Positions 2,910 to 29,220 of a stretch of 64,000 nt of DNA are shown here, piece after piece; the stretch's first letter is position 1; every line of letters starts with the position of its first letter. The stretch is from an uncultured archaeon (lineage in GTDB: Archaea > Asgardarchaeota > Lokiarchaeia > Sigyniarchaeales > SOKP01). Where the stretch lies: contig CAZWEM010000007.1 of the NCBI GenBank assembly GCA_964632315.1, positions 48,571 to 112,570 on the forward strand, in the 5' to 3' direction. Below the pieces are notes generated by a model. The model was not told the DNA's origin, ran no database searches, and saw only the letters and a list, made by a program, of their open reading frames with translations. The translations under genes were made by a program, and so were the position numbers.

Positions 2910-3431
2910 TTAAGTATAACGACCTCTTAATAATCCAAGTACGATTAAATTTATTGTACAAATCCCATTTATTATGATTTGGATTATTATATTAGAGACT
3001 TGTTTTGGTGAAACGAACCAAAAAGCGAGAGGAGTAAATATTTCTGCCGTTATCCAACAAAATAGAGTTATCAAATATGCATAAAAAAAATTTCTTCTAT
3101 ACCTCGAAATTTTGAAAGAATGATCGGTTTTTGTAAGAAGAACCAATGCCGCTCTTCCAATGTCGGAAAAAGTGTACTTTGAATCTCTTTGAGTTAATAA
3201 TTCTTTCATGCTTTTAAGATGATAGGAGAGGGTTGGACTATCAATTGAACCCAACTCCATCTGAATTTGGCTAAATGTTAAATCTCGTTCTCCTAAAACT
3301 TTTATAATATTTCTCCGAATGGGATGGGTTAACAACTTGAAAATCTCATCTTCTTTGGAACTTTCATCCGTGTTCGGTTTATTTTTTAACATTTGTTTCA
3401 ATATTGTAAGTAATATTTTTTTTGCTTTCAA
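2910..3431 (-). CDS. ArsR-type winged-helix transcriptional regulator with two C-terminal TM helices
   Basis: IFKLLTHPIRRNII...LSYHLK...YTFSDIGR wHTH pattern; hydrophobic C-terminus; start may be downstream of the annotated TTG. Confidence 0.8.
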   Translation of the reverse strand: MKAKKILLTILKQMLKNKPNTDESSKEDEIFKLLTHPIRRNIIKVLGERDLTFSQIQMELGSIDSPTLSYHLKSMKELLTQRDSKYTFSDIGRAALVLLTKTDHSFKISRYRRNFFYAYLITLFCWITAEIFTPLAFWFVSPKQVSNIIIQIIINGICTINLIVLGLLRGRYT

Positions 3432-13678: not shown

Positions 13679-14551
13679 ATGAAAATATTATTAATTGAAG
13701 ATAATGCAGCTGATATTAAACTTATAGAAGAGTTTTTAAAAAAATCCTCCACTTTTCAATACGAACTTCATTCATTTACGCGTCTTTCAGAAGGATTAGA
13801 TTATGTTAATAATAATGAAGTGGATGTTATCTTACTAGATCTGACCCTACCAGATAGTGATAAAGAATCCTCTCTTGATACGATCCTAGAATACACATCT
13901 AAATATCCTGTTATTATTTTAACTGGATTTGATGATAAAGAAATTGCCTTAAATTCTCTTAAAAAAGGAATTCAAGACTATTTAGTAAAGGGAGATTTAA
14001 CTGATACCATCTTAAATCGTTCGATTTTATATGGAATCGAACGCCACAAAATCAAGCCTGAAGGTGCAATCAAAAAAGAAATCGAATTACCTTTAGATAA
14101 AAAGGATAAATTAATTCTAAACATTTTACAAGATAATTACAAAATATCTTATAAAGAAATAAGTAGTAAAGTGCATCTAGCAGCGAGCACAATCCATAAT
14201 CGCGTACAAAATATGATTACTACGGGGATTATTAAAGAAATCGATACAATTGTGGATCCATATAAAGTCGGTTTTAATACCATTACCATTGTGAGTTTAT
14301 CTGTAGATCCCTTAAAAATAGATGAGATTGCCCAAAAACTAAAAATATATGATAACATTCAACTCATTGCCTCTAGTGGAGGAGAATATAACTTAATAAT
14401 AAAAATTATAGTGGAAAATGAGAAAACCCTCTGGAAATTTATTAATGAAAAAATTAAAACAATTTCGGGAATATCAACCCAAATAAATGTTTCAAGCTTA
14501 ATTGAAATTTTTAAAAACACATCAAGAGTAAAATTTAAAGTAGAAAAATAA
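13679..14551 (+). CDS. Response regulator: receiver domain fused to a full Lrp/AsnC regulator (HTH + RAM domain)
   Basis: REC ILLIEDN, VILLD, ILT, YLVK; then LDKKDKLILNILQDNYKISYKEISSKVHLAASTIHNRVQNM...GIIK...VDPYKVGF...SGGEYNLII. Confidence 0.9.
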   Translation: MKILLIEDNAADIKLIEEFLKKSSTFQYELHSFTRLSEGLDYVNNNEVDVILLDLTLPDSDKESSLDTILEYTSKYPVIILTGFDDKEIALNSLKKGIQDYLVKGDLTDTILNRSILYGIERHKIKPEGAIKKEIELPLDKKDKLILNILQDNYKISYKEISSKVHLAASTIHNRVQNMITTGIIKEIDTIVDPYKVGFNTITIVSLSVDPLKIDEIAQKLKIYDNIQLIASSGGEYNLIIKIIVENEKTLWKFINEKIKTISGISTQINVSSLIEIFKNTSRVKFKVEK

Positions 14552-14556
14552 AAGAT

Positions 14557-15888
14557 TTAAGGAAAAATTCCTCTTAATTCAATAGCTCTTGCTAATCTTG
14601 AAACGGCTATTATATATGCAGCAGTTCTTAAAGTTGTATTTTTCTTCAAAGAGAGATCATAAACTTCCGAAAATGTGTTAACCATAATACCTTCTAATTC
14701 TTGGTTTATTCGATCAAGTTTCCAAAAGTAGCTATGAATATCTTGGATATACTCAAAATAACTTACGCAAACTCCCCCAGCATTTGCTAAAATATCAGGT
14801 ACAACAATTATCCCCCTCTCTCTTAATATTTCATCAGCTTCTGGTGTCGTTGGACCGTTTGCTCCTTCTAAAATTATTCCACAATTAATATTGTCAGCGT
14901 TATCGAGGGTTATCTGATTTTCTATTGCAGCTGGGATTAAGACATCACAATCAATATTTAGTAATTTGTCGTTAGGAATAAATTCGTAGTTTTCTTCCCT
15001 ATAGTCTTTTAAAAAGTGATTTTGATCGACCCATTCTGATAATTTTTTGATATCTAAGCCTTTATTATCATATAATCCCCCACTAATATCTGAAATCGCA
15101 ATAATCTTTGCTCCTTTTTCATATAGTATCCTAGCTATTGTTCCTCCAACGTTTCCAAAACCTTGGACTACGATGCTACTACCTTTGAGAGCTAAATTCA
15201 TTTTTTTATATAATGCATCTAATACATAATATAATCCCATTCCCGTTGCACTTTCTCTTCCCACTGATCCTCCTATTTCTATAGGTTTTCCGGTAACCAC
15301 TCCTGGAACAGAACGCCCTTTCTGCATTGAATACACATCCATAATCCATGCCATTATCCTTTTATCAGTTCCCACATCTGGAGCAGGAATATCAATATCA
15401 GGACCAATAATATTAATGATTTCAGCTGTGTATCTTCTTGTCAGTCTTTCAAGCTCTCCTAATGAAAGTTTTCTTGGATCAACACATACTCCTCCTTTAG
15501 CACCCCCTAAAGGGAGGTTTAATAAGCTGTTTTTCCAAGTCATCCATGTTGCAAGTGCCTTTACTTCATCTAAACACACGTTGGGAGAAAACCGAATGCC
15601 TCCCTTTCCTGGACCCCTGACGGTAGAATGCTGGGCTCTATATCCCTCAAATACTTCAAGTTCTCCATTATCCATAACTACAGGAATTGAAACAATCAGA
15701 GAGCGCTCTACTCTTTTTAGATATTTGGTAATATTTTTGTCTAGTCTCATCTCTTTAGCGACAATGTCGATTTGTTGTTTCGCCATCTCAAAGGGATTTC
15801 GAATTACTTTCTGAGGCCTTTTATATTCTTCTGATGGTTCGATCTCATTTGATACTACTATTGCTTTTTTATAAATAATTCTCCCCAC
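14557..15888 (-). CDS. gdhA: Glu/Leu/Phe/Val dehydrogenase, probably glutamate dehydrogenase
   Basis: GPGKGGIRF, GGAKGG, DIPAPDVGT, GFGNVG, NAGGVCVSYFE. Confidence 0.93.
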   Translation of the reverse strand: MGRIIYKKAIVVSNEIEPSEEYKRPQKVIRNPFEMAKQQIDIVAKEMRLDKNITKYLKRVERSLIVSIPVVMDNGELEVFEGYRAQHSTVRGPGKGGIRFSPNVCLDEVKALATWMTWKNSLLNLPLGGAKGGVCVDPRKLSLGELERLTRRYTAEIINIIGPDIDIPAPDVGTDKRIMAWIMDVYSMQKGRSVPGVVTGKPIEIGGSVGRESATGMGLYYVLDALYKKMNLALKGSSIVVQGFGNVGGTIARILYEKGAKIIAISDISGGLYDNKGLDIKKLSEWVDQNHFLKDYREENYEFIPNDKLLNIDCDVLIPAAIENQITLDNADNINCGIILEGANGPTTPEADEILRERGIIVVPDILANAGGVCVSYFEYIQDIHSYFWKLDRINQELEGIMVNTFSEVYDLSLKKNTTLRTAAYIIAVSRLARAIELRGIFP

Positions 15889-17081: not shown

Positions 17082-18029
17082 TTATTTCAAAATTGCTAAT
17101 TGCTCTAAAGAAATTTGCTTTGAAAAAATAATATCTTCTTTTAAGATCTCTTTAATTGTAATTAAAATAGTAGTATCAATTATACAATAGGGAAAAGTAA
17201 AAACTATTTCTTCTTCAAATAGCCATTGTTCGACATCAATATTCATTACTTCTTTTTCAAACAAATCGTAAATATGAGAGATTCGAATATTTAGGGCTTC
17301 AAATATCTTCTCTGTTATATTTTTAATTATGATTTCAATTTCTTCACATAAGTTGTTAACTTTTATAGTCTTTACTTCAAAGATATTCTTATCTTCGCTT
17401 AATTTAGAAATTGATTCAAAGATATTAATATTCGAAAAATTTTCCTGAGATATTTGTTCTAGATGAGAAACATTCATTCCCATCGATTCTAAAAAAGTTA
17501 TGGCTTTTTGTAATTTAGTACATTTTGCGTCAGGGAAACCTGTAATAGAGTTTAAAAAAATTGAACATACAAAATTGATAAGTTCTAATACTCGTTTTTT
17601 GAGGATTTCTCCTTTAAGAATTATTTGTTGCTTTTTCACATTTTGTACTATATCATATTTATTTATTTCAGATTCCACAATCGTATAAAGTGAATATTTA
17701 TATCGTTTTATAATGTAATTCTCTAATAAACTTAACAAGTTCTCTCCAATTATATGTAATTCTACAGGTAATATTAGACAAATCGCACAACATTCAAACT
17801 GATTTGAGCTTTCTGAAAACAATTCTAATTTTTTAGCGAAGTATACTTTTTTTCCCAATTCTAAAACTAAGGTGCTGTTTTTTTCTTGTTCATCAAAATA
17901 AAGTGCAAGAGTTCCTAACATTCGTGTTCTTTCGTGATCTAATTTAATAGAATCATAAGGGTATATTACAAAAGGCACGTAACCAAATAATCGGTCAAAA
18001 TATAATAATAATACTTCGAACCTACTCAT
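17082..18029 (-). CDS. Hypothetical protein with a possible N-terminal longin/uDENN-like domain
   Basis: Likely start MSRFEVLLLYFDRLFGYVPFVIYP (ATG 18029, about 50 nt after the hydrogenase stop); resembles the FDxxxGP first hairpin of uDENN/NPR2-type longins. Confidence 0.6.
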   Translation of the reverse strand: MSRFEVLLLYFDRLFGYVPFVIYPYDSIKLDHERTRMLGTLALYFDEQEKNSTLVLELGKKVYFAKKLELFSESSNQFECCAICLILPVELHIIGENLLSLLENYIIKRYKYSLYTIVESEINKYDIVQNVKKQQIILKGEILKKRVLELINFVCSIFLNSITGFPDAKCTKLQKAITFLESMGMNVSHLEQISQENFSNINIFESISKLSEDKNIFEVKTIKVNNLCEEIEIIIKNITEKIFEALNIRISHIYDLFEKEVMNIDVEQWLFEEEIVFTFPYCIIDTTILITIKEILKEDIIFSKQISLEQLAILK

Positions 18030-18078
18030 TTCCGTTATTTGAGTCTTTTCAAATATAAGAATCACCCTATAAATTATT

Positions 18079-19386
18079 TTAATGACTCGCACACGAGACA
18101 CATGGATCAAAAGATCTTATAATTTGTTGAACATCACATTTAACTCCATTAATATCGCCAGTTTTTTGATATAATCTTCGAGCATAATTCGTTATCATTG
18201 TATTTATGAGTGGAATGTTTATTTCTGTTGCTATGAGCAATTTTACTTCCTTTACTATCTTATTCTCATCAATCTTGTAGTGATGGATCAATGTGCCACG
18301 AGGAGCCTCTAAAATTCCAACACCATCTTTTCTTTCAATTTTTTTTAAATTTGAGAGATTCCTTTTTCCCTTTAGTGCAGGATTATCTAAAATTGCTAAA
18401 GCTTGGTTTGCTTCTACAAAAATTTCAATTAATCTGAGAAAGTTCATAAACAAGGTCGATCTTTTCCAGGATTTATCGAAATTTGTGAAATATTTATCAA
18501 CATCCTCAACGTTATAACTTTCAATCAGATTATAACGTGCAAGAGGACCAACTAAAATGCTTGAATCTTTTTCTAAATTAAAATTGATCCCTCGTAGATC
18601 AGGATCTTTATCAAAATATCTTTCATAATTATTAAATTGAAAGTCTACGGGTTTAGATTGATCGGTGAGTAATCTCAATATACCATTGTATCTTCCGTAA
18701 TTGCCATGAAAATGTTGACTGAGAAATGTTGTATTTGGTAAGGTGAATTGTTCTGGAGGCTCAAAATTTGAAAATAGGTTTATAAATTTATCTAACACAT
18801 AATCTATACTTACAATAACTTTTTGGAAGTAGCGTTTTACGGTTGTAAAATCTTTTTTTATTGGAGTATAAATTACTCCTCCTGGAATTGTATTAATTAA
18901 ATGTACCGAACGACCACCAAATATCTTGTCAATTTCGTTCCCAAATTTGACTAGCTCATACATGTATGAGGTTAATTGAGGATCAAAATGGGTTAATTCA
19001 TATGGATTAGGAACATTTTTAAAATGTCCAAAAATATGTAAAAGATCTGGTAATGCTTGAAAGAAATAATGCATTGAATGAGATTTGATTAGTTCGCCTG
19101 TCAATAATAATTTTCTTAGAAGTATCATTTGTTCATCTGGTTCAACATTAAATATGTGTTCAATTGCCTTGCAACTTACGATACTTTGAGAAGCATGGCA
19201 TAGCCCACATATCCTACTTACAATTCGGGGAAGTTCTATTAATCTCTTTCCAATAAGAATTTGTTCAAATCCTCTTAAAGTATTAATTTCGAAATCTACC
19301 GTGGAAATATTATCATCTTGAAGAATTATTTTTACATTTCCATGGCCTTCTATTCTAGTACATAGATCTACGATCTTTAACATCAT
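18079..19386 (-). CDS. mvhA: Group 3 [NiFe]-hydrogenase large subunit (MvhA-like) with no C-terminal extension
   Basis: TRIEGH, RGFE, L1 RICGLC, EAPRGTLIHHY, L2 FDPCVSCASH followed directly by TAA. Confidence 0.9.
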   Translation of the reverse strand: MMLKIVDLCTRIEGHGNVKIILQDDNISTVDFEINTLRGFEQILIGKRLIELPRIVSRICGLCHASQSIVSCKAIEHIFNVEPDEQMILLRKLLLTGELIKSHSMHYFFQALPDLLHIFGHFKNVPNPYELTHFDPQLTSYMYELVKFGNEIDKIFGGRSVHLINTIPGGVIYTPIKKDFTTVKRYFQKVIVSIDYVLDKFINLFSNFEPPEQFTLPNTTFLSQHFHGNYGRYNGILRLLTDQSKPVDFQFNNYERYFDKDPDLRGINFNLEKDSSILVGPLARYNLIESYNVEDVDKYFTNFDKSWKRSTLFMNFLRLIEIFVEANQALAILDNPALKGKRNLSNLKKIERKDGVGILEAPRGTLIHHYKIDENKIVKEVKLLIATEINIPLINTMITNYARRLYQKTGDINGVKCDVQQIIRSFDPCVSCASH

Positions 19387-19387
19387 T

Positions 19388-20146
19388 TCACCTCTCTAAA
19401 ACTGGTCTTGAAAATCTGTAGAAAATTCCATCATATTTACGCAAAGTTGCAGATAGATTTATGAGGCTCAAAAAATTAATAACATTTGAAGTATAATCCT
19501 TAGAAATGGGCCCCATACATCCCTCACAAGGCATTCCTTGATTAATACATTTGTGCTCGCATCCTTCTCGTGTAATGGGACCTAAACATAAAATTCCCCT
19601 TTTTAAAAAGCAGATCCCATTTGTTTCAAAATCCGAAATCTCTTCAGGATTAGGTTCAAATCGAGAAATTTCAATTTCTGTGTTTAGAGTTATGTCCGCT
19701 TTTAATGGGCAATTTGCACATAAATTTTTGTTTGATAATTCGATTTCTTTATTTTCGATTATATGTAGTAAAATGTTACCTAACATTTTAGAAGGAGGAG
19801 GACAACCGGGAATAATTCCATCAATTTCTATGTATTTAGAAATAGGTTCTGCATTTTTAACTTTAGAAAGACTCAAGATACCACCAAAAGTAGCACAAGA
19901 TCCTAAAGAAAATACTTTTTTAGCATAATATCTTATAGTTTTAACCAGGTCAATTTGCTCTTTTTCAGAGATGCATCCTTCTATGAGAGCAATATCACAA
20001 TCCTTTATTTCTATTTCATCATTAATAAACGGAAAGATAACGTCTCGGGTTCTCTCGAGAAACTGGGGAAAGATATCTAATGCCATTAACGTTGATATAC
20101 ATCCACTACAAGATGTTAATGAATAAATGAGAATTTTAGGCTTCAA
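19388..20146 (-). CDS. mvhG: [NiFe]-hydrogenase small subunit (MvhG-like)
   Basis: SCSGC, IEG, GSCATFGG, IPGCPP, CANCP, CFLKRGILCLGPITREGC...C...PCEGCMG. Likely TTG start at 20146 after a GAGGTG SD, overlapping the upstream stop. Confidence 0.88.
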   Translation of the reverse strand: MKPKILIYSLTSCSGCISTLMALDIFPQFLERTRDVIFPFINDEIEIKDCDIALIEGCISEKEQIDLVKTIRYYAKKVFSLGSCATFGGILSLSKVKNAEPISKYIEIDGIIPGCPPPSKMLGNILLHIIENKEIELSNKNLCANCPLKADITLNTEIEISRFEPNPEEISDFETNGICFLKRGILCLGPITREGCEHKCINQGMPCEGCMGPISKDYTSNVINFLSLINLSATLRKYDGIFYRFSRPVLER

Positions 20147-22697
20147 TTTCTCCCACCTCTTCCAATTCTTTGTAAAATTTTTGAATGATTTCAGAAAACT
20201 TACTTCCTTCCACAGCATTTACATGTTTCAATATGACTCGGTGGGCGAATTTTGGACCAAGAATACTCTTTAATAAGTGAACTTTCTTTCTTACGTTCTC
20301 AATACCATCAATGTATCTGCAAGAGTTTTTTCGGCATCCAATGATCAAAATTCCATCAAACCCTAATTCAAAAGATTTTATAATAAAGCTTGAATCGACC
20401 CTTCCGGTACATGGTACTTGAATTATGAAGATATTAGGATAATATGTTATCTTCTTCAATCCAGCATCATCAGCTGCAGCATAACCACAAGATCGACAAC
20501 AAAATGCGATAATTTTAGGCGAATTTTTAAATTTGGAAAATATTTCTATACTTTTTAATATTTTTTCAGAGCTGTCTATGTTCATGCTCAAAGCATTAGT
20601 AGGACAGACGCTTACACAAGTACCACATCCCTTACACTTGAATTTATCAATGTTTAATTTATCAACTTCAAAAGTTATAGCATTATAAGGACATACTTTT
20701 AAGCATAGTCCACAGAGACCACATCTTTCATAATTTATTTCAATTCCTCCAAATTCAGCTAATAAATAATCATTAGAAAGTAAAGAAATTACTTTTAACG
20801 CAACTTGGTTTGCTGATATAATAACCTCCTTATAACTTAATGGCCCAAAAATCGAGCCTGCCCCGTAGACTCCTGAAGCAAGTGTTTCTTCGCTCATAAA
20901 TCCAAAATCATTTAATGTAAAATCCATTTGTTTACGAAGAACTTTTAAATCTTTATTGGGAATTAAATTAGGATTCAGAATTATTAAATCAGAAGGATAT
21001 TCTTTATCATCAGCAACGACAACATTTTGGTTATATGTGTTTTTAATTTCTAACTTTTCAGCGTAATGAATCCTATCATCAAAAATACTAAATCTATATG
21101 AGGGAGTTTTCACCTTATTTTGAATTTGATAAAACACATTTATGTTTATTTCTGGATTCTTTTGGCGAATTTCTTCCATGTATTTTAATACTAAGACGTT
21201 AGCTAAATCTAATTGTGAGTTGCTCTCAGTTGCATTCTGAATTATGGAGATATCATTCGGTACTGCTTTATCTGAAAGACGAATGATTTTTCCTTCTGTT
21301 ATTCCATCTGAAGATAATATTCTTTCAAATTCAGCTGAAGTTATTATATCATTCATTGGATTATGGGAGAAATTATCAAATTTATCAGGAAGGTCAGTAC
21401 CAATAGCAACCACCTTAGTACCTGCTTTAATTCGTATTTCTTCTGGTTTTTGAGATAGATCAATTGCTTTGTTTGGACATGCCCGTTCGCATATTCCGCA
21501 ATTAAGACAGTTCTTTATGTCTTCTTGATCAATTATGGGAGCATATGGATAACAATGAATAAATGGTAAGTATATTATTTTTCGCTCCTCCAAATTAAAC
21601 TCATATTGATTTGGTTTTTGAACACTACATAAATCGATACATTGCTTACAACCAGTACATTTGGTTTCATCTACAAACCTTGGATTTTTTCTTAAATCAA
21701 TGGTAAAATTACCAACCTCTCCAGAGATATTCATAACTTCTGTATTAGTAAAAATTTTGATATTAGATTCTTTTACAAGTTCAGAAATGAATTCTGAAAT
21801 AAAACATATCGAACAATCTCCCATTTCATAAATTTTATGCCATCTTGCTACTTTTCCTCCAAGTGTTGCCGATTTTTCAATTAAATACACTTTTATTCCC
21901 GCCCTTGCTAGATTAAGAGCAACAGTCATCCCAGCAATACCTCCTCCAAGAACTGCGCAACTCCGTTCAACTTCTACCTTTTTAACCCTAATTGCTTTTT
22001 GAAGTATTGCTCTCTCGACTGCAGCTTCTATTAATAATTTAGCTTTTTCTAGGGTTAAAGCAGGATCTATTATTTCGTTTAAATTATTATGAACCCACGC
22101 ACATTGTTCTCTAATATTCGCAAATTCAATATAAGTATGATCAACTGTATTTTCAAAAATATGCTCAAAGAGATGTTGATGAGTCTTGGGAGAACAAGCA
22201 GCAATAACAATCTTATTTAAGTAGTTATCTTTAACCCAATTTTTAATTTGATCAAAATTTTTCTGTTGACATAAATTTTGAAAACGTTTAACTGAAACCA
22301 CGTTTCTTAAACGGGTAATGTAATTCTCAAGTGCGGAAATATTGATAACACTAGAAATTTCCTCATTACAATTACAAATTATTACGCCTACTCTACTGAT
22401 CTCACTTCCTTTGGAGTGAAAATAATCATCTATGTCCTCACCTGAGAGAATTCGTTTATTAAGATTCATAATAGTCATAATCCTTTTGCCATCTTCGGTG
22501 AGAAAATAGGATTTATTATCCTTTCCAATAAGAGAACCAAGTTTCTTAAGGTGAAAATTAAGTTGACCAGTCGTATCTAACCCAAGGCGTTCCATTAACT
22601 CTGTGTAAGGAATATAACCTTCTTTTTCCAAAAGGAGTAAAATTTTTCTTCGAAAAGGGTGGGATAAAATTGAATAAACATCCATTTCTTTTAACAT
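20136..22697 (-). CDS. Winged-helix (ArsR-like)-HdrA-MvhD fusion flavo-FeS protein
   Basis: aa ~5-85 wHTH; HdrA N-domain (GVIICNC, AACSP, ANIREQCAWVH); FAD motif GGGIAG; two 2x[4Fe-4S] domains; C-terminal MvhD (IIAFCC, VPCTGRVD, GC...CRY). Confidence 0.9.
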   Translation of the reverse strand: MLKEMDVYSILSHPFRRKILLLLEKEGYIPYTELMERLGLDTTGQLNFHLKKLGSLIGKDNKSYFLTEDGKRIMTIMNLNKRILSGEDIDDYFHSKGSEISRVGVIICNCNEEISSVINISALENYITRLRNVVSVKRFQNLCQQKNFDQIKNWVKDNYLNKIVIAACSPKTHQHLFEHIFENTVDHTYIEFANIREQCAWVHNNLNEIIDPALTLEKAKLLIEAAVERAILQKAIRVKKVEVERSCAVLGGGIAGMTVALNLARAGIKVYLIEKSATLGGKVARWHKIYEMGDCSICFISEFISELVKESNIKIFTNTEVMNISGEVGNFTIDLRKNPRFVDETKCTGCKQCIDLCSVQKPNQYEFNLEERKIIYLPFIHCYPYAPIIDQEDIKNCLNCGICERACPNKAIDLSQKPEEIRIKAGTKVVAIGTDLPDKFDNFSHNPMNDIITSAEFERILSSDGITEGKIIRLSDKAVPNDISIIQNATESNSQLDLANVLVLKYMEEIRQKNPEININVFYQIQNKVKTPSYRFSIFDDRIHYAEKLEIKNTYNQNVVVADDKEYPSDLIILNPNLIPNKDLKVLRKQMDFTLNDFGFMSEETLASGVYGAGSIFGPLSYKEVIISANQVALKVISLLSNDYLLAEFGGIEINYERCGLCGLCLKVCPYNAITFEVDKLNIDKFKCKGCGTCVSVCPTNALSMNIDSSEKILKSIEIFSKFKNSPKIIAFCCRSCGYAAADDAGLKKITYYPNIFIIQVPCTGRVDSSFIIKSFELGFDGILIIGCRKNSCRYIDGIENVRKKVHLLKSILGPKFAHRVILKHVNAVEGSKFSEIIQKFYKELEEVGEIEA

Positions 22698-22945
22698 CCC
22701 TCTGACTTTTTATGATAAATAAATTGATAAATTTTTTAATATGATAATTTTTTTTATCAACATGACAAATGATGTGATCAAGATATATAAATCTATGTTG
22801 TAAATCGATCATATAATGTTGCATTCCAAAAATAGCGATCCTCAATTTCAATAATATTGAGTATTTTTCTATAAAAAATCCGGTAATTAATACCAAAAAA
22901 CTATAAAAGTAGGGGTTGTTACAGCAAAATAGGTTCAAATCTTAA

Positions 22946-23019
22946 TTGACAACACTTTTAGTTAAGCATTTTTTTTGATAAGATTTGTTGTCAAATTTAG
23001 CATTAATTTTGTTGTCAAA
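22946..23019. promoter_or_regulatory. Repeated TGTTGTCAA boxes in the divergent promoter region
   Basis: TTGACAACA 22946-22954 (inverted); TTTGTTGTCAAA at 22984-22995 and 23008-23019 (perfect 12-bp direct repeat, 24-bp period). Confidence 0.6.
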
Positions 23020-23100: not shown

Positions 23101-23721
23101 ATGGAAGTATTAGAATTGAACGGTCCCAAGGATGTAAAAATTATTGTATACATGGCAAAGTCAGAAAAGTCAGATATTCAGAAGGGATTCGATAGTAGAG
23201 TCCTTTCTTTTATCAAGGAAAAAGGAGTAAAGTTTGTAACCATTGATTTTCAAATTGACATTAAATCATTCAAAAATACAGACTTAGGAAAAGTATTAGA
23301 AAAGTCAGGAATTCCATTTTATCAAGTTGATATTCCTGAATATGCTATGGGATATATTTATGAGGAAATAGTGGAGAAGGAAGAATTAATGAATGAGTTA
23401 TGCGATGAATATGAATCAATGGAGAATAAGGATAGTTATAAAGGAGAAAGCTTGAAAAATTGGATTGACCTGCTTCATGAAGAAATCCAGCAGAAAGAAA
23501 ATTATATTAGTCTAAAATTAAGACCGCAGTGGATTGTTAAAAAAATGTTGGATCTATCTAAAACTCATAGAGCAAATCGAGTAGTATTCCTTCATTATGT
23601 CCAAACGGACATTTGTGAAGATATTTGCCCACAAGTCACACAACAATTAAGAGAAGTGGGCGTTAAGGTAATTAATTATAATGTAAAAAAACATTTAAGA
23701 GAAATATTAGCAAAATCTTAA
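23101..23721 (+). CDS. Hypothetical protein, paralog of the N-terminal domain of the next gene
   Basis: Likely ATG at 23101 after an AGGTGG SD; IPFYQVDIPEYA...W...EEIQQKE...LRPQWIVKKML aligns with IPYEMVDISEQA...W...EEYDQKE...VREAWMMMKVL. Confidence 0.75.
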   Translation: MEVLELNGPKDVKIIVYMAKSEKSDIQKGFDSRVLSFIKEKGVKFVTIDFQIDIKSFKNTDLGKVLEKSGIPFYQVDIPEYAMGYIYEEIVEKEELMNELCDEYESMENKDSYKGESLKNWIDLLHEEIQQKENYISLKLRPQWIVKKMLDLSKTHRANRVVFLHYVQTDICEDICPQVTQQLREVGVKVINYNVKKHLREILAKS

Positions 23722-23725
23722 AAAG

Positions 23726-25432
23726 GTGAAAATAAAAATGTCTGAAACCTTAGAATTAAAAGCAATAAAGGACAAAAACCTAAAATTGGTAATGGTAGAA
23801 AGCGAATTTCCTATAGATTGGTTTTTTAATAAGGAAAAAAATGATGATTCATTACTTTTGAATTTACATTTTGTCTCTAAACAATATCTACACGTCATTG
23901 AAGGTTTGATTGATCAGTATAAACCCAAGTTTATTTTGGAAGAAAAAGGTAATCGAGACGAAGCTTTTACTGAGGATGATCCTTTAAAAGACCTCTTTAA
24001 AAGTAGAAATATTCCTTATGAAATGGTCGATATTTCTGAACAAGCAGAAGATTATTTGCGAGCATCTTTAGATGATCATAAAGCATTAATTAAACAGTTA
24101 ACTGGAAAGATTGATCAAATGATAAAAGTGAACCATGGAGCACCCCCCATTAATGATGAGACATTCTCTCAATTAATCATGTGGAGGGAACATTTACAAG
24201 AAGAATATGACCAGAAAGAAGATGAGGTAAGATATAAAGTTCGGGAAGCGTGGATGATGATGAAGGTATTAAAACAAGCCAAAAGTTTTACGGATAAAAA
24301 GCTTTCAGGCCTCTTCATTTGCGATGAGCGCCATTTTGAGGGATTAGAAAATCTAGCAACAAATTTAAATGTCTTGACGGAGCAAATAAAGATTAAAAAA
24401 GAGATTGCAATAGAACAACCAATGCTTTTAAACACCGATGGAAGCATTTCTACTGCTAATGAAAGTCCAAGCGCTGTAGGAAAATCAATGTGGGAATTGT
24501 CTGCCATAAAGATAAAAAAAGCAGATACTTCTGATAAGATATGTTATTTCTTTGATACTGATGAGATGGCTTCTCCATTTGACATTAACATGGCATATGA
24601 TGCTGGGTTTGATGTGGTAGTACCTGTACCTAGTATTAATGCTGATAAAGTACCAAAATTAGTTCAAGACGCAATCTTCTCTCGTAAACCAAATGCTCCC
24701 ACAACCTTCTTTATAGGAGGATCAAATGTCCTTGAAGGAGAAAAAATAGCAAAAAAGGTAATAAAATCATTGGTTCCTCCTTTTGAATGTCCTGTAATCA
24801 TTGATCCTCGTGGTTCTCATACCACTGCATCTGCTGTTGTAGCCATGACCATAGATATTGCAAGAAAAGAGCATGGAATAAAGGATGTTAAAGGAAAAAA
24901 AGTGATTATCTTTGGGGCAGGCCCCGTTGGTAGGATTGCTGCTATACTTGGAGCTAAGTTAAAGTGTGACACTTATCTTATCGAAACTTGGGATAAAGGA
25001 TCTAAGAAAGCAATTGAAAAGCTAGCAGAGGAACTCACTAAAGAAGCTGGAGAAAACGCAACGAAGGTCAAGGGTATATTTGCACCAACAATAGAAGAAA
25101 GAGTTGAGATTAGCAAAGATGCAAGTTTCATATGGTCCTTAGCAGCTGCGGGTGTAGAAGTTTTACCTGTTCACGCTATGCAGAAACTCTCAGGAAAGAA
25201 GATAGTCGTGGATATTAATCTGGTCCCTCCATATGGAATTGAAGGAATCAAACCAAAACACAAGAATGATGAGATTTATCCTGGAATTTTCGGAATAGGA
25301 GCTCTGGCTTTAGGAAGACTGAAATCAGAATCAGAAGGCCAAATTTTAAAAGAAGCAGCTCAAACTAAGGGTAAAAGGATTTTTGATTATAATTATGCAT
25401 TTGAAAAGGCAAATGAACTCTTAGCTAAATAA
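23726..25432 (+). CDS. Unknown N-terminal domain fused to an NAD(P)-dependent methylene-H4MPT/H4F dehydrogenase (MtdB/MtdA family)
   Basis: SPFDINMAYDAG, QDAIFSR, FIGG, VPPF, DPRGSHTTA, GAGPVG, DINLVPPYGIEG, GIGALALG. Confidence 0.85.
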   Translation: MKIKMSETLELKAIKDKNLKLVMVESEFPIDWFFNKEKNDDSLLLNLHFVSKQYLHVIEGLIDQYKPKFILEEKGNRDEAFTEDDPLKDLFKSRNIPYEMVDISEQAEDYLRASLDDHKALIKQLTGKIDQMIKVNHGAPPINDETFSQLIMWREHLQEEYDQKEDEVRYKVREAWMMMKVLKQAKSFTDKKLSGLFICDERHFEGLENLATNLNVLTEQIKIKKEIAIEQPMLLNTDGSISTANESPSAVGKSMWELSAIKIKKADTSDKICYFFDTDEMASPFDINMAYDAGFDVVVPVPSINADKVPKLVQDAIFSRKPNAPTTFFIGGSNVLEGEKIAKKVIKSLVPPFECPVIIDPRGSHTTASAVVAMTIDIARKEHGIKDVKGKKVIIFGAGPVGRIAAILGAKLKCDTYLIETWDKGSKKAIEKLAEELTKEAGENATKVKGIFAPTIEERVEISKDASFIWSLAAAGVEVLPVHAMQKLSGKKIVVDINLVPPYGIEGIKPKHKNDEIYPGIFGIGALALGRLKSESEGQILKEAAQTKGKRIFDYNYAFEKANELLAK

Positions 25433-27708: not shown

Positions 27709-27894
27709 ATCCTTTCCATTTTTTTTATTTTGTAAAGAAAATACAGGTTTTCATTTATGAAAAAAAAAAATCTCAAAACAAAAATTTGATTAAAAAAATT
27801 ATCAAAAACTCCAAAATTTCTCTTATCAAATTTTTTATATTGGAATTGGATTATTTATCATTTAGTAATAACAAAATAAAAAAGTGATTGAAAA

Positions 27895-28230: not shown

Positions 28231-29220
28231 ATGGTCAGAATTCTAACTAAGCAAGATGTTTTTGAGTTGTTATCGATGAATGATGCCTTAAAATATGTTG
28301 AAGAGGCATATAAACAACTTACACTAGGAAAAGCGATTGTTCCTCAGAGAATCGCTATAACAGATCCAGCTCCTGGTTTAACTTTAATCATGCCGGGAAT
28401 AATTGGTGGAGAAATGAATGCTTTGGCAACAAAAATTGTATCAGTATACAAACAAAATCCTGAAAAATACAATATGCCAACTGTTTTGGCTAAAATAATG
28501 GTTCAAGACATAAACACAGGAGATATTGTCGGGATAATGGATGGGAGTCTAATTACTGCAATGAGAACTGGCGCTGCTACAGGAGTTTCTGTGAAGTACT
28601 TAGCTCGCAAGAATAGTAAAACTATGGGTATATATAGTGCTGGAGTACAAGCAAGAAAACAAGTTGTGGGTGTTTATTGGGGTTTAAATAAGAAATTAGA
28701 AAAATGCAAAGTCTATGATTTAAAAAGAGAGACAGCTTTAGAATTCAAGAAAGAACTTGAAAAAGAGTTAGGAATTGAAATAGAAATAGTCAACTCTGGT
28801 GATGATGTACTTAGAGATACAGACATTATAGTTGCTGCTACAACTAGTACTACTCCCTTATTTGATGGAAATAAGGTTCGTGAGGGGACTCATATTTCAT
28901 CAATCGGAGCTCATGCTGCAGAAATAAGGGAATTAGATTCGACTATTATAAAACGAGCAAGCGTCTTAGTAGCTGGCTTAAAAGAAGCCTGTTTAGCAGA
29001 AGCGGGAGATTATATAATTCCTATTAATGAAGGGATTATTATGTCTGATAAAGTAGTTTCGATTGGGGATATTATAACGGGAAAAGCCACAGGCCGCGGA
29101 AAAGAATCGGATATCACGATATTCAAATCAGTGGGAATTAGTGCTCAAGATGTTGCCACGGCTAAGCTTGTTTATGACAGAGCAATCGAACAAGGAATAG
29201 GACAAGATATTAATTTTTAA
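28231..29220 (+). CDS. Archaeal alanine dehydrogenase / ornithine cyclodeaminase / mu-crystallin family
   Basis: ATKIVSV, TAMRTGAA, HISSIGA, FKSVGISAQD. Confidence 0.9.
   Translation: MVRILTKQDVFELLSMNDALKYVEEAYKQLTLGKAIVPQRIAITDPAPGLTLIMPGIIGGEMNALATKIVSVYKQNPEKYNMPTVLAKIMVQDINTGDIVGIMDGSLITAMRTGAATGVSVKYLARKNSKTMGIYSAGVQARKQVVGVYWGLNKKLEKCKVYDLKRETALEFKKELEKELGIEIEIVNSGDDVLRDTDIIVAATTSTTPLFDGNKVREGTHISSIGAHAAEIRELDSTIIKRASVLVAGLKEACLAEAGDYIIPINEGIIMSDKVVSIGDIITGKATGRGKESDITIFKSVGISAQDVATAKLVYDRAIEQGIGQDINF

Follow-up and report, generated by a model that had tools for sequence, protein, structure and literature searches.

In methanogens, the MvhAGD-HdrABC complex (5ODC, 8RVU, 9SW2) wires a [NiFe] hydrogenase through MvhD into HdrA, a flavin and iron-sulfur (FeS) protein, and in Methanosarcina the HdrA2 protein is an HdrA-MvhD fusion. 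In bacteria, the group 2b hydrogenases HoxBC/HupUV work with the kinase HoxJ and with HoxA toward a transcriptional output, while the flavoenzyme PutA carries a DNA-binding domain at its own N-terminus. Reduction of the PutA FAD relieves repression; its DNA-binding head is a ribbon-helix-helix, the whole protein is one polypeptide, and the switch works through membrane binding. Here we analyzed a 64,000-nucleotide stretch of an uncultured Asgard archaeon (assembly GCA_964632315.1, contig CAZWEM010000007.1, positions 48,571 to 112,570), hereafter the window, to which coordinates refer unless a locus or contig is named. Its minus strand encodes a protein that joins an ArsR/SmtB-type winged helix-turn-helix (wHTH) to an HdrA-like core and MvhD, followed by MvhG-like and MvhA-like hydrogenase genes (Table 1). 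The same 18-bp palindrome lies on the promoter of this operon, on unlinked frhB-like promoters and on up1/Mtd-like promoters, and is newly found here. Our favored reading, to which we assign a probability of about 0.5, is that a working hydrogenase would serve as its own repressor, a trigger enzyme resembling PutA whose DNA binding would be set by H2 or by redox state.

The Asgard locus resembles each of these systems in part. It shares subunit families and wiring order with MvhAGD-HdrABC, and its HdrA keeps the FAD and ferredoxin domains, but it lacks both HdrBC in cis and the HA4 cluster, has MvhD fused and a wHTH added, carries Gln in place of the L1 His, and has no C-terminal tail on the large subunit. 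HdrA2 has the same HdrA-MvhD fusion, whereas the Asgard version is without HA4, bears the wHTH and comes with hydrogenase genes of its own. The same Gln67 and tail-less end occur in HoxBC/HupUV, with which a transcriptional output would also be held in common by analogy. In contrast to those enzymes, the Asgard large subunit is archaeal and of group 3, the putative DNA-binding domain sits inside the complex, and there is no kinase or response regulator. PutA likewise combines a flavoenzyme with an N-terminal DNA-binding domain and has several operators in a divergent intergenic region, although in the Asgard complex an ArsR-type wHTH forms the head, the enzyme is a hydrogenase of several subunits, and the switch is predicted by analogy. 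ArsR/SmtB repressors (CadC, NolR, BigR, HlyU) and YodB share the fold of the head, and their palindromes of inverted hexamers would be the counterpart of the candidate operator. Unlike them, the Asgard head has no metal or thiol site and was not found free-standing in a database search, and it is the attached redox enzyme that would sense.

The initial annotation proposed that one open reading frame (ORF) encodes a wHTH-HdrA-MvhD fusion translationally coupled to MvhG- and MvhA-like genes, and Pfam, NCBIfam and the gene overlap agreed with this apart from the start codon. The frame 20136..22697 is open for 853 aa, but homologs begin at the fifth codon, M5 (MD[IV]YS...), so we place the gene at 20136..22685 with a product of 849 aa. 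A TTG at 20146, preceded by the Shine-Dalgarno sequence GAGGTGGGAG, is the most likely start of the MvhG-like gene, which would thus overlap the last 11 nt of the fusion gene, while the MvhA ATG sits 1 nt past the MvhG stop codon. Searching with the N-terminal 140 residues retrieved 160 protein clusters (90% identity) of ~849 aa and the same architecture. The fusion is encoded in 98 species genomes and in 119 of 400 Asgard genomes, representing at least eight GTDB families and N-terminal identities down to 36%. The gene order fusion-mvhG-mvhA was invariant, being seen in 73 of 80 fetched loci, with the remaining seven cut short. Metagenome contigs from other studies (salt marsh) span the wHTH-HdrA junction without indels. 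The DNA contigs covering the locus are of low depth, and no RNA dataset was listed for it. An assembly artifact is ruled out by these clusters, genomes and independent contigs, and the architecture and its synteny with mvhG and mvhA are conserved across Asgard genomes rather than limited to one. One complete Asgard operon (L099, DATKTW010000111.1) is filed under 'Candidatus Nanopelagicaceae bacterium', probably through a binning error, and most of the loci fall in a single GTDB family, at odds with what NCBI calls them (Thor-, Hermod-, Hod- and Odinarchaeota).

Residues 6-75 of the fusion match DUF7347, an ArsR-like wHTH family (Pfam, E 2e-11), with a weak match to HTH_24. In an AlphaFold model, the head shows the ArsR/SmtB-type topology a1-a2-b-a3-aR-wing-a5 (DSSP) with a predicted local distance difference test (pLDDT) score of ~90, and is followed by a linker (low-confidence residues 82-96, pLDDT ~50) and then the HdrA N-terminal domain. 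The best Foldseek matches to the head were CadC, a NolR-DNA complex, YodB, BigR, HlyU and Archaeoglobus ArsR, with a probability of 1.0 for CadC, NolR and A. fulgidus ArsR and a root-mean-square deviation of ~2.1 Å over ~80 residues. All 36 aligned homologs share T-G-Q-L-N-F-H in this domain's recognition helix. Across 118 family members the wHTH is the best-conserved domain, having a mean identity of 82%, whereas the linker averages 69% and the remaining domains 54-76%. Residues 1-100 contain no Cys, and no metal- or thiol-sensing site of ArsR/SmtB type (a3N or a5 Cys/His) was found.

The head and the enzyme were not found apart. A 5.8-billion-protein database contained no free-standing copy of the wHTH among its short entries of 48-154 aa, where 14 short matches appear to be gene fragments that are annotated 'partial' or are shorter than a complete wHTH. 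All full-length members of the HA4-less subfamily bore the wHTH when the query was the stretch of the enzyme most specific to the family. Entries of 816-821 aa that resembled wHTH-less orthologs were start-codon miscalls, as the recognition helix is still encoded. The stand-alone regulator at 2910..3431, which had been aligned to the head by eye, is a true DUF7347 paralog (25% identity, E 3e-9), although its recognition helix differs. A 630-aa protein of the same genome (L029:4257-6149; G000 contig C1:160256-162148) consists of an N-terminal DUF7347 wHTH and an NrdD-like anaerobic ribonucleotide reductase domain, separated by a stretch that looks ATP-cone-like by eye and has no profile match. 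This case suggests that fusions of enzymes to wHTH domains recur in the source organism.

Behind the linker, fusion residues 102-852 align end to end with HdrA2 (NCBIfam NF040770) at 574 bits, which is below the cut-off of 1100. Pfam also identified 4Fe-4S and FAD-binding motifs as well as FlpD/MvhD at 729-849 (E 1e-34), and the core and the MvhD part align to solved HdrA chains (8rvu_a and 5odc_A, E 1e-105) and solved MvhD chains (E 1e-24), respectively. The core retains the N-terminal cluster domain (C108, C110, C143, C168), the FAD site GGGIAG, the DCSIC motif, and both the inserted and the C-terminal ferredoxin domains. These core cysteines are conserved in all 118 homologs, and the other cluster ligands, the DCSIC pair and the MvhD cysteines in 117-118 of 118, including those of the ferredoxin-side clusters HA5 and HA6. 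In contrast, alignment to 8rvu_a shows the HA4 motif CxGSRD...CSxxCC replaced by ISIIQNATESNSQLDLANVLVLKY in the window protein, and none of the 118 family members contributes to a conserved Cys column at the HA4 ligand positions. Describing the body as HdrA is therefore apt for its FAD and FeS domains, but not for the HA4 ligands or the missed NCBIfam cut-off.

HA4 is the route of the high-potential electron from FAD to HdrB (PMC13580544). With HA4 lost, the fusion would no longer feed HdrBC and would not be a normal HdrABC partner, which would account for hdrBC missing from all 80 related loci. The earlier observation that hdrB and hdrC are missing from the window thus holds and extends to those loci. 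In the source genome, hdrCB lies on another contig beside a second, Vhu-type [NiFeSe] hydrogenase. That cluster (L028:6582-10806, G000 contig C11) encodes a 409-aa small subunit and a VhuA that ends before the L2 motif, continues with a small VhuU ORF containing selenocysteine (FDCULSCAAH) and a tail, followed by hdrC and hdrB, and is without hdrA or mvhD.

The large subunit of the fusion operon has the L1 RxCGxC and L2 DPCxxC nickel ligands and is nearest to MvhA. Its E values of 1e-52 to MvhA versus 1e-12 to HoxC place it in group 3 rather than group 2b, while equal matches to VhuA and ShyA (181 bits each) leave groups 3b and 3c unseparated. Gln occupies the L1 histidine position (RxCGxCxxxQ; Gln67 here) in 69 of 69 orthologs, and 67 of 69 stop exactly at DPCxxCxxH without a C-terminal tail. 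The solved group-3 enzymes compared all have His at this position, and two aligned MvhA-type chains have tails of ~25 aa. In C. necator HoxC, Gln67 is found at the same aligned position, as is the same terminal His. Gln for the L1 His together with the absence of a tail is characteristic of regulatory hydrogenases, although tail-less large subunits also occur in other groups and the Gln seems dispensable for sensing (PMC5665086, PMC7294309). Together with the HA4 loss, Gln67 and the tail-less end argue for a retuning of the chemistry that accompanied acquisition of the head.

These active-site traits raise the alternative of a dedicated sensor without net catalysis, which would report the H2 or ferredoxin redox state to a wHTH controlling C1 (one-carbon) and F420 genes and would unite in one archaeal complex what bacteria divide among HoxBC, HoxJ and HoxA. 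Both traits are position-matched to C. necator HoxC and nearly or entirely invariant, the HA4 exit to HdrBC is gone, the regulon appears small and local, and the Vhu-type hydrogenase with hdrCB could be the metabolic one. The 80 related loci gave no match to a histidine kinase gene. Against a dedicated sensor, the ligands of the HA5 and HA6 clusters and all others are invariant. Furthermore, the second hydrogenase operon has no operator among the position weight matrix (PWM) matches listed. In the closed 2.27-Mb chromosome G188, no hydrogenase of any class other than the fusion-linked one was found using PF00374, PF02906 and PF00346. Considering also the partner genes described below, we regard a dedicated sensor as unlikely, albeit the most credible of the alternatives.

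The upstream regions of the operons share an 18-bp palindrome, TGAYAA-N6-TTRTCA. There are 94 perfect palindromes in 957 kb of the 80 related loci, and nearly all of these are in the promoter of the fusion operon. In 48 of 81 loci, a palindrome with at most one mismatch begins 3 nt past the TTTATATA box. A second copy lies 120-210 bp farther upstream, most often at 167-169 bp, and weaker copies occur at 21-29 bp. The window contains seven sites with at most one mismatch versus 2.07 expected, and three of them cluster at 22742-22993. Only seven perfect sites exist in the 4.45-Mb source genome, where other spacers give 1-6. The distal site O2 has the best PWM score of that genome, and together with the perfect proximal site (22742-22759) makes up the top two; four of the five remaining perfect sites fall inside ORFs. 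Elsewhere in this genome, intergenic candidates ahead of a Pyr_redox_2/rubredoxin-reductase-like gene and beside a URO-D family gene were not distinguishable from chance. A one-mismatch copy, TGATTAAAAAAATTATCA, at 27787-27804 lies in the intergenic stretch ahead of an ornithine cyclodeaminase/mu-crystallin gene (28231-29220) and has the fifth-best PWM score of the genome; it may belong to the regulon or have arisen by chance.

Several properties of the palindrome point to a site read by a protein. Its arms are often non-complementary, with C...A as the commonest form and no covariation of RNA pairs, and an Rfam scan of the intergenic region returned one sub-threshold chance match only. For both reasons we dropped an RNA element as an explanation and favor a protein site over an RNA stem. 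From its placement, a protein bound 3 bp after the TATA box should block recruitment of RNA polymerase. A TATA box followed by the palindrome gave 40 matches in 38 of 400 Asgard genomes, compared to three matches for the reversed control. All 38 genomes carry the fusion, and the combination is absent from the 281 genomes that the fusion query did not match, including 44 of the same family. Of the four most divergent families sampled, three have an upstream site with at most one mismatch, in some cases at an N-terminal identity of only 36-43%, and one locus of another family retains the core GAYAA-N6-TTRTC.

No DNA-binding gene other than the wHTH is conserved in the 80 related loci. The wHTH is thus the sole conserved DNA-binding domain beside the operator. 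In these searches neither the wHTH by itself nor the TATA-operator pair in its absence was encountered, which makes autoregulation the most economical reading. Another explanation is that the wHTH is a structural or protein-protein module, or binds another nucleic acid, while a separate factor reads the palindrome. Winged helices do also make protein contacts, and a homodimer prediction for two copies of residues 1-98 scored 0.32 against a mark of 0.42 and so gave no verdict. The NrdD-like enzyme on contig C1 has an N-terminal DUF7347 too, so the domain may be a general Asgard decoration. Against this, the fold resembles DNA-binding ArsR/SmtB repressors rather than protein-binding winged helices, the 80 loci conserve no second DNA-binding gene, and the TATA-operator pair is limited to genomes with the fusion (38 of 38 versus 0 of 281). 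We therefore deem a head that does not bind the operator the least probable of the alternatives.

The genes that accompany the operon bear on whether the complex still acts as an enzyme. An frhB-like gene (PF04432/PF04422), for a substrate-binding subunit of catalytic type, is the first gene of the operon, ahead of the fusion, in 25 of 81 loci, and in two genomes (L116, L117) an unlinked frhB-like gene keeps a TATA-operator promoter. Upstream on the opposite strand, up1 occurs in 45 of 80 loci and up2, which contains an Mtd-like domain, in 39 of 80; they are directly adjacent and divergent in ~35. At loci where up1 and up2 stand apart from the operon, a palindrome of their own accompanies them. 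Families f19 and f31 instead have up2 immediately after mvhA, in the same orientation. The invariant cofactor ligands, the FrhB-like and Mtd-like partners and the G188 chromosome with its sole hydrogenase jointly argue that the complex still works as an enzyme. The initial annotation's proposal of an H2/redox-sensing complex is supported in part, by the conserved architecture, the ArsR/SmtB fold, the palindrome on the operon's promoter, the HA4 loss and the sensor-like traits of the active site, whereas the notion of a pure sensor is weakened by the FrhB-like subunits, by the Mtd-like gene in distant lineages, by the invariant FeS ligands and by G188.

Under our favored reading of a hydrogenase that represses its own operon, the MvhA-/MvhG-like hydrogenase would be wired via the fused MvhD into the HdrA-like flavin/FeS protein, to which a linker of ~15 residues tethers the wHTH. 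Its likelier partners would be ferredoxin and, where encoded, the FrhB-like subunit and the Mtd-like C1 dehydrogenase. The two heads of an HdrA dimer would bind TGAYAA-N6-TTRTCA, and the complex would repress its own operon, the frhB-like genes and the up1/Mtd-like operon. Once H2 or reduced ferredoxin had reduced the FeS/flavin chain, the N-terminal domain that carries the head would shift and thereby alter DNA binding, as PutA links derepression to the reduction of its FAD. We infer that the wHTH would bind the operator, that binding would repress and that H2 or redox state would switch binding. A stricter version, in which H2 would be split at the NiFe site, its electrons would pass through MvhG, MvhD and the clusters and flavin of HdrA, a conformational change would then move the two heads on or off the operator, and the complex would be an H2-switched transcription factor, seems to us tentative, at somewhat less than even odds.

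A number of observations weigh against the favored reading. As the wHTH has no cysteine, any redox signal must act allosterically through the flexible linker. A separate trans-acting factor that co-occurs with the fusion may read the operator instead. Comparing divergent lineages gave no informative covariation between recognition helix and operator, and Q41 is replaced by L in f19 and f31, yet the site is unchanged. Gln67 and the lack of a tail may point to an active site of low turnover, closer to that of a sensor than of a metabolic enzyme (PMC5665086). Finally, the source genome has no dedicated frhB-like partner bearing the operator.

Some of the same features would also fit a wHTH that binds constitutively and independently of redox, providing negative feedback and co-ordinating the partner genes with no sensing at all. 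This explanation draws on the same operator evidence, and the absence of a cysteine or metal site from a wHTH set apart from the redox body by a flexible linker is in its favor. Conversely, the extreme conservation of the wHTH, tied as it is to HA4 loss, Gln67 and the tail-less subunit, suggests that head and body co-evolved toward a shared function. The enzyme-repressor fusions PutA, BirA and NadR are switched by ligand or by redox, which likewise speaks against a head indifferent to its enzyme. We hold purely constitutive autoregulation to be improbable.

Asgard archaea are the lineage closest to eukaryotes and are thought to live by hydrogen-based syntrophy, and we know of no H2 sensor described in archaea. 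The operon is a widespread candidate for H2 sensing in Asgards, with one domain, an 18-bp operator and a small putative regulon that includes the hydrogenase operon itself as well as frhB-like and Mtd-like C1 genes. If the H2-switched reading is true, it would be the first archaeal H2 sensor and the first hydrogenase that itself contacts DNA. It would also have converged with bacterial regulatory hydrogenases on Gln67 and the lack of a tail while controlling C1/F420-linked genes. For the mechanism of hydrogenases, it is notable that a group-3 enzyme has converged with those bacterial enzymes on Gln for His and a missing tail. The analysis further redefines a cluster routinely annotated 'MvhADG-HdrA', since the HA4-less version would be unable to feed HdrBC. 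Metabolic reconstructions that count the fusion as a canonical bifurcating Mvh-Hdr complex should be revisited.

Clusters of this kind are classed in other papers on Asgard archaea as MvhADG-HdrABC-type hydrogenases. In Helarchaeota, Seitz et al. 2019 recognized these three genes and interpreted them as possibly encoding a membrane complex that transfers energy; their gene cluster is on the same contigs as two of our loci, L103 and L129 (PMC6478937). The main text and supplements of that study, to the extent available to us, make no mention of the wHTH, the operator, the HA4 loss or the sensor-like traits. The literature searched contained nothing on DUF7347 or on a wHTH fused to HdrA. The initial annotation's view that the architecture is undescribed can thus be kept for the wHTH-HdrA fusion, but not for the three-gene cluster as such.

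Table 1. Features of the fusion operon, its promoter and the divergent genes, in window coordinates.
Feature	Position	Strand	Remarks
Fusion gene: wHTH, linker, HdrA-like core and MvhD	20136..22685	-	849 aa; ORF open to 22697
ArsR/SmtB-type wHTH	22443..22685	-	ORF residues 5-85; recognition helix TGQLNFHLKKL, wing KSYFLTEDGK
Flexible linker between wHTH and HdrA N-terminal domain	22395..22442	-	About residues 86-101
HdrA-like core	20532..22394	-	Alignment to solved HdrA chains
Segment matching HdrA motif CxGSRD...CSxxCC (HA4 ligands)	21180..21251	-	Without conserved cysteine
MvhD/FlpD domain, fused, [2Fe-2S]	20136..20522	-	Pfam FlpD and solved MvhD chains
MvhG-like small subunit	19388..20146	-	ORF 19388..20218; matches Oxidored_q6 and VhuG
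Group-3 [NiFe] large subunit, MvhA-like	18079..19386	-	RICGLCHASQ; ends exactly at DPCVSCASH
Fourth ORF, 315 aa, Asgard-specific, no family assigned	17082..18029	-	Lineage-specific operon gene
Predicted TATA box of operon promoter	22784..22791	-	TTTATATA on minus strand; from sequence
Candidate operator O1	22763..22780	.	TGACAAATGATGTGATCA, 1 mismatch; 3 bp downstream of TATA box
Second proximal candidate operator	22742..22759	.	TGATAATTTTTTTTATCA, perfect; 21 bp from O1
Distal candidate operator O2	22976..22993	.	TGATAAGATTTGTTGTCA, perfect; promoter region of divergent up1
up1, Asgard-specific, divergent	23101..23721	+	Paralog of up2 N-domain; likely regulon member
up2: N-domain and MtdA/B-type methylene-tetrahydromethanopterin (H4MPT) dehydrogenase	23726..25432	+	Pfam Mpt_N, E 2e-24

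Among the remaining genes, the fourth ORF (17082..18029) had no match in Pfam and NCBIfam searches, and its atlas matches were unnamed Asgard clusters only. It lies downstream of the operon in 22 of 80 related loci and has a paralog on contig C45 (31% identity). The up1 protein and the N-terminal 220 aa of up2 are paralogs, sharing a domain that is specific to Asgards and conserves Asp, Glu, His and Trp; TraB/GumN is its nearest named family, a weak match (score 0.81). We considered up1 as a thioredoxin-like CxxC protein and rejected this because no cysteine is conserved. At L053:3290-5029 and L116:2861-4774, where the operon opens with the frhB-like gene, a divergent HdrA paralog lies upstream of the operator pair and may belong to the same regulon; the L053 copy is split by an in-frame stop that is probably selenocysteine. 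Elsewhere in the window, the gene at 13679-14551 fuses a response-regulator receiver to a complete Lrp/AsnC regulator (HTH_24/AsnC and ligand domain) and adjoins a glutamate dehydrogenase gene at 14557-15888.

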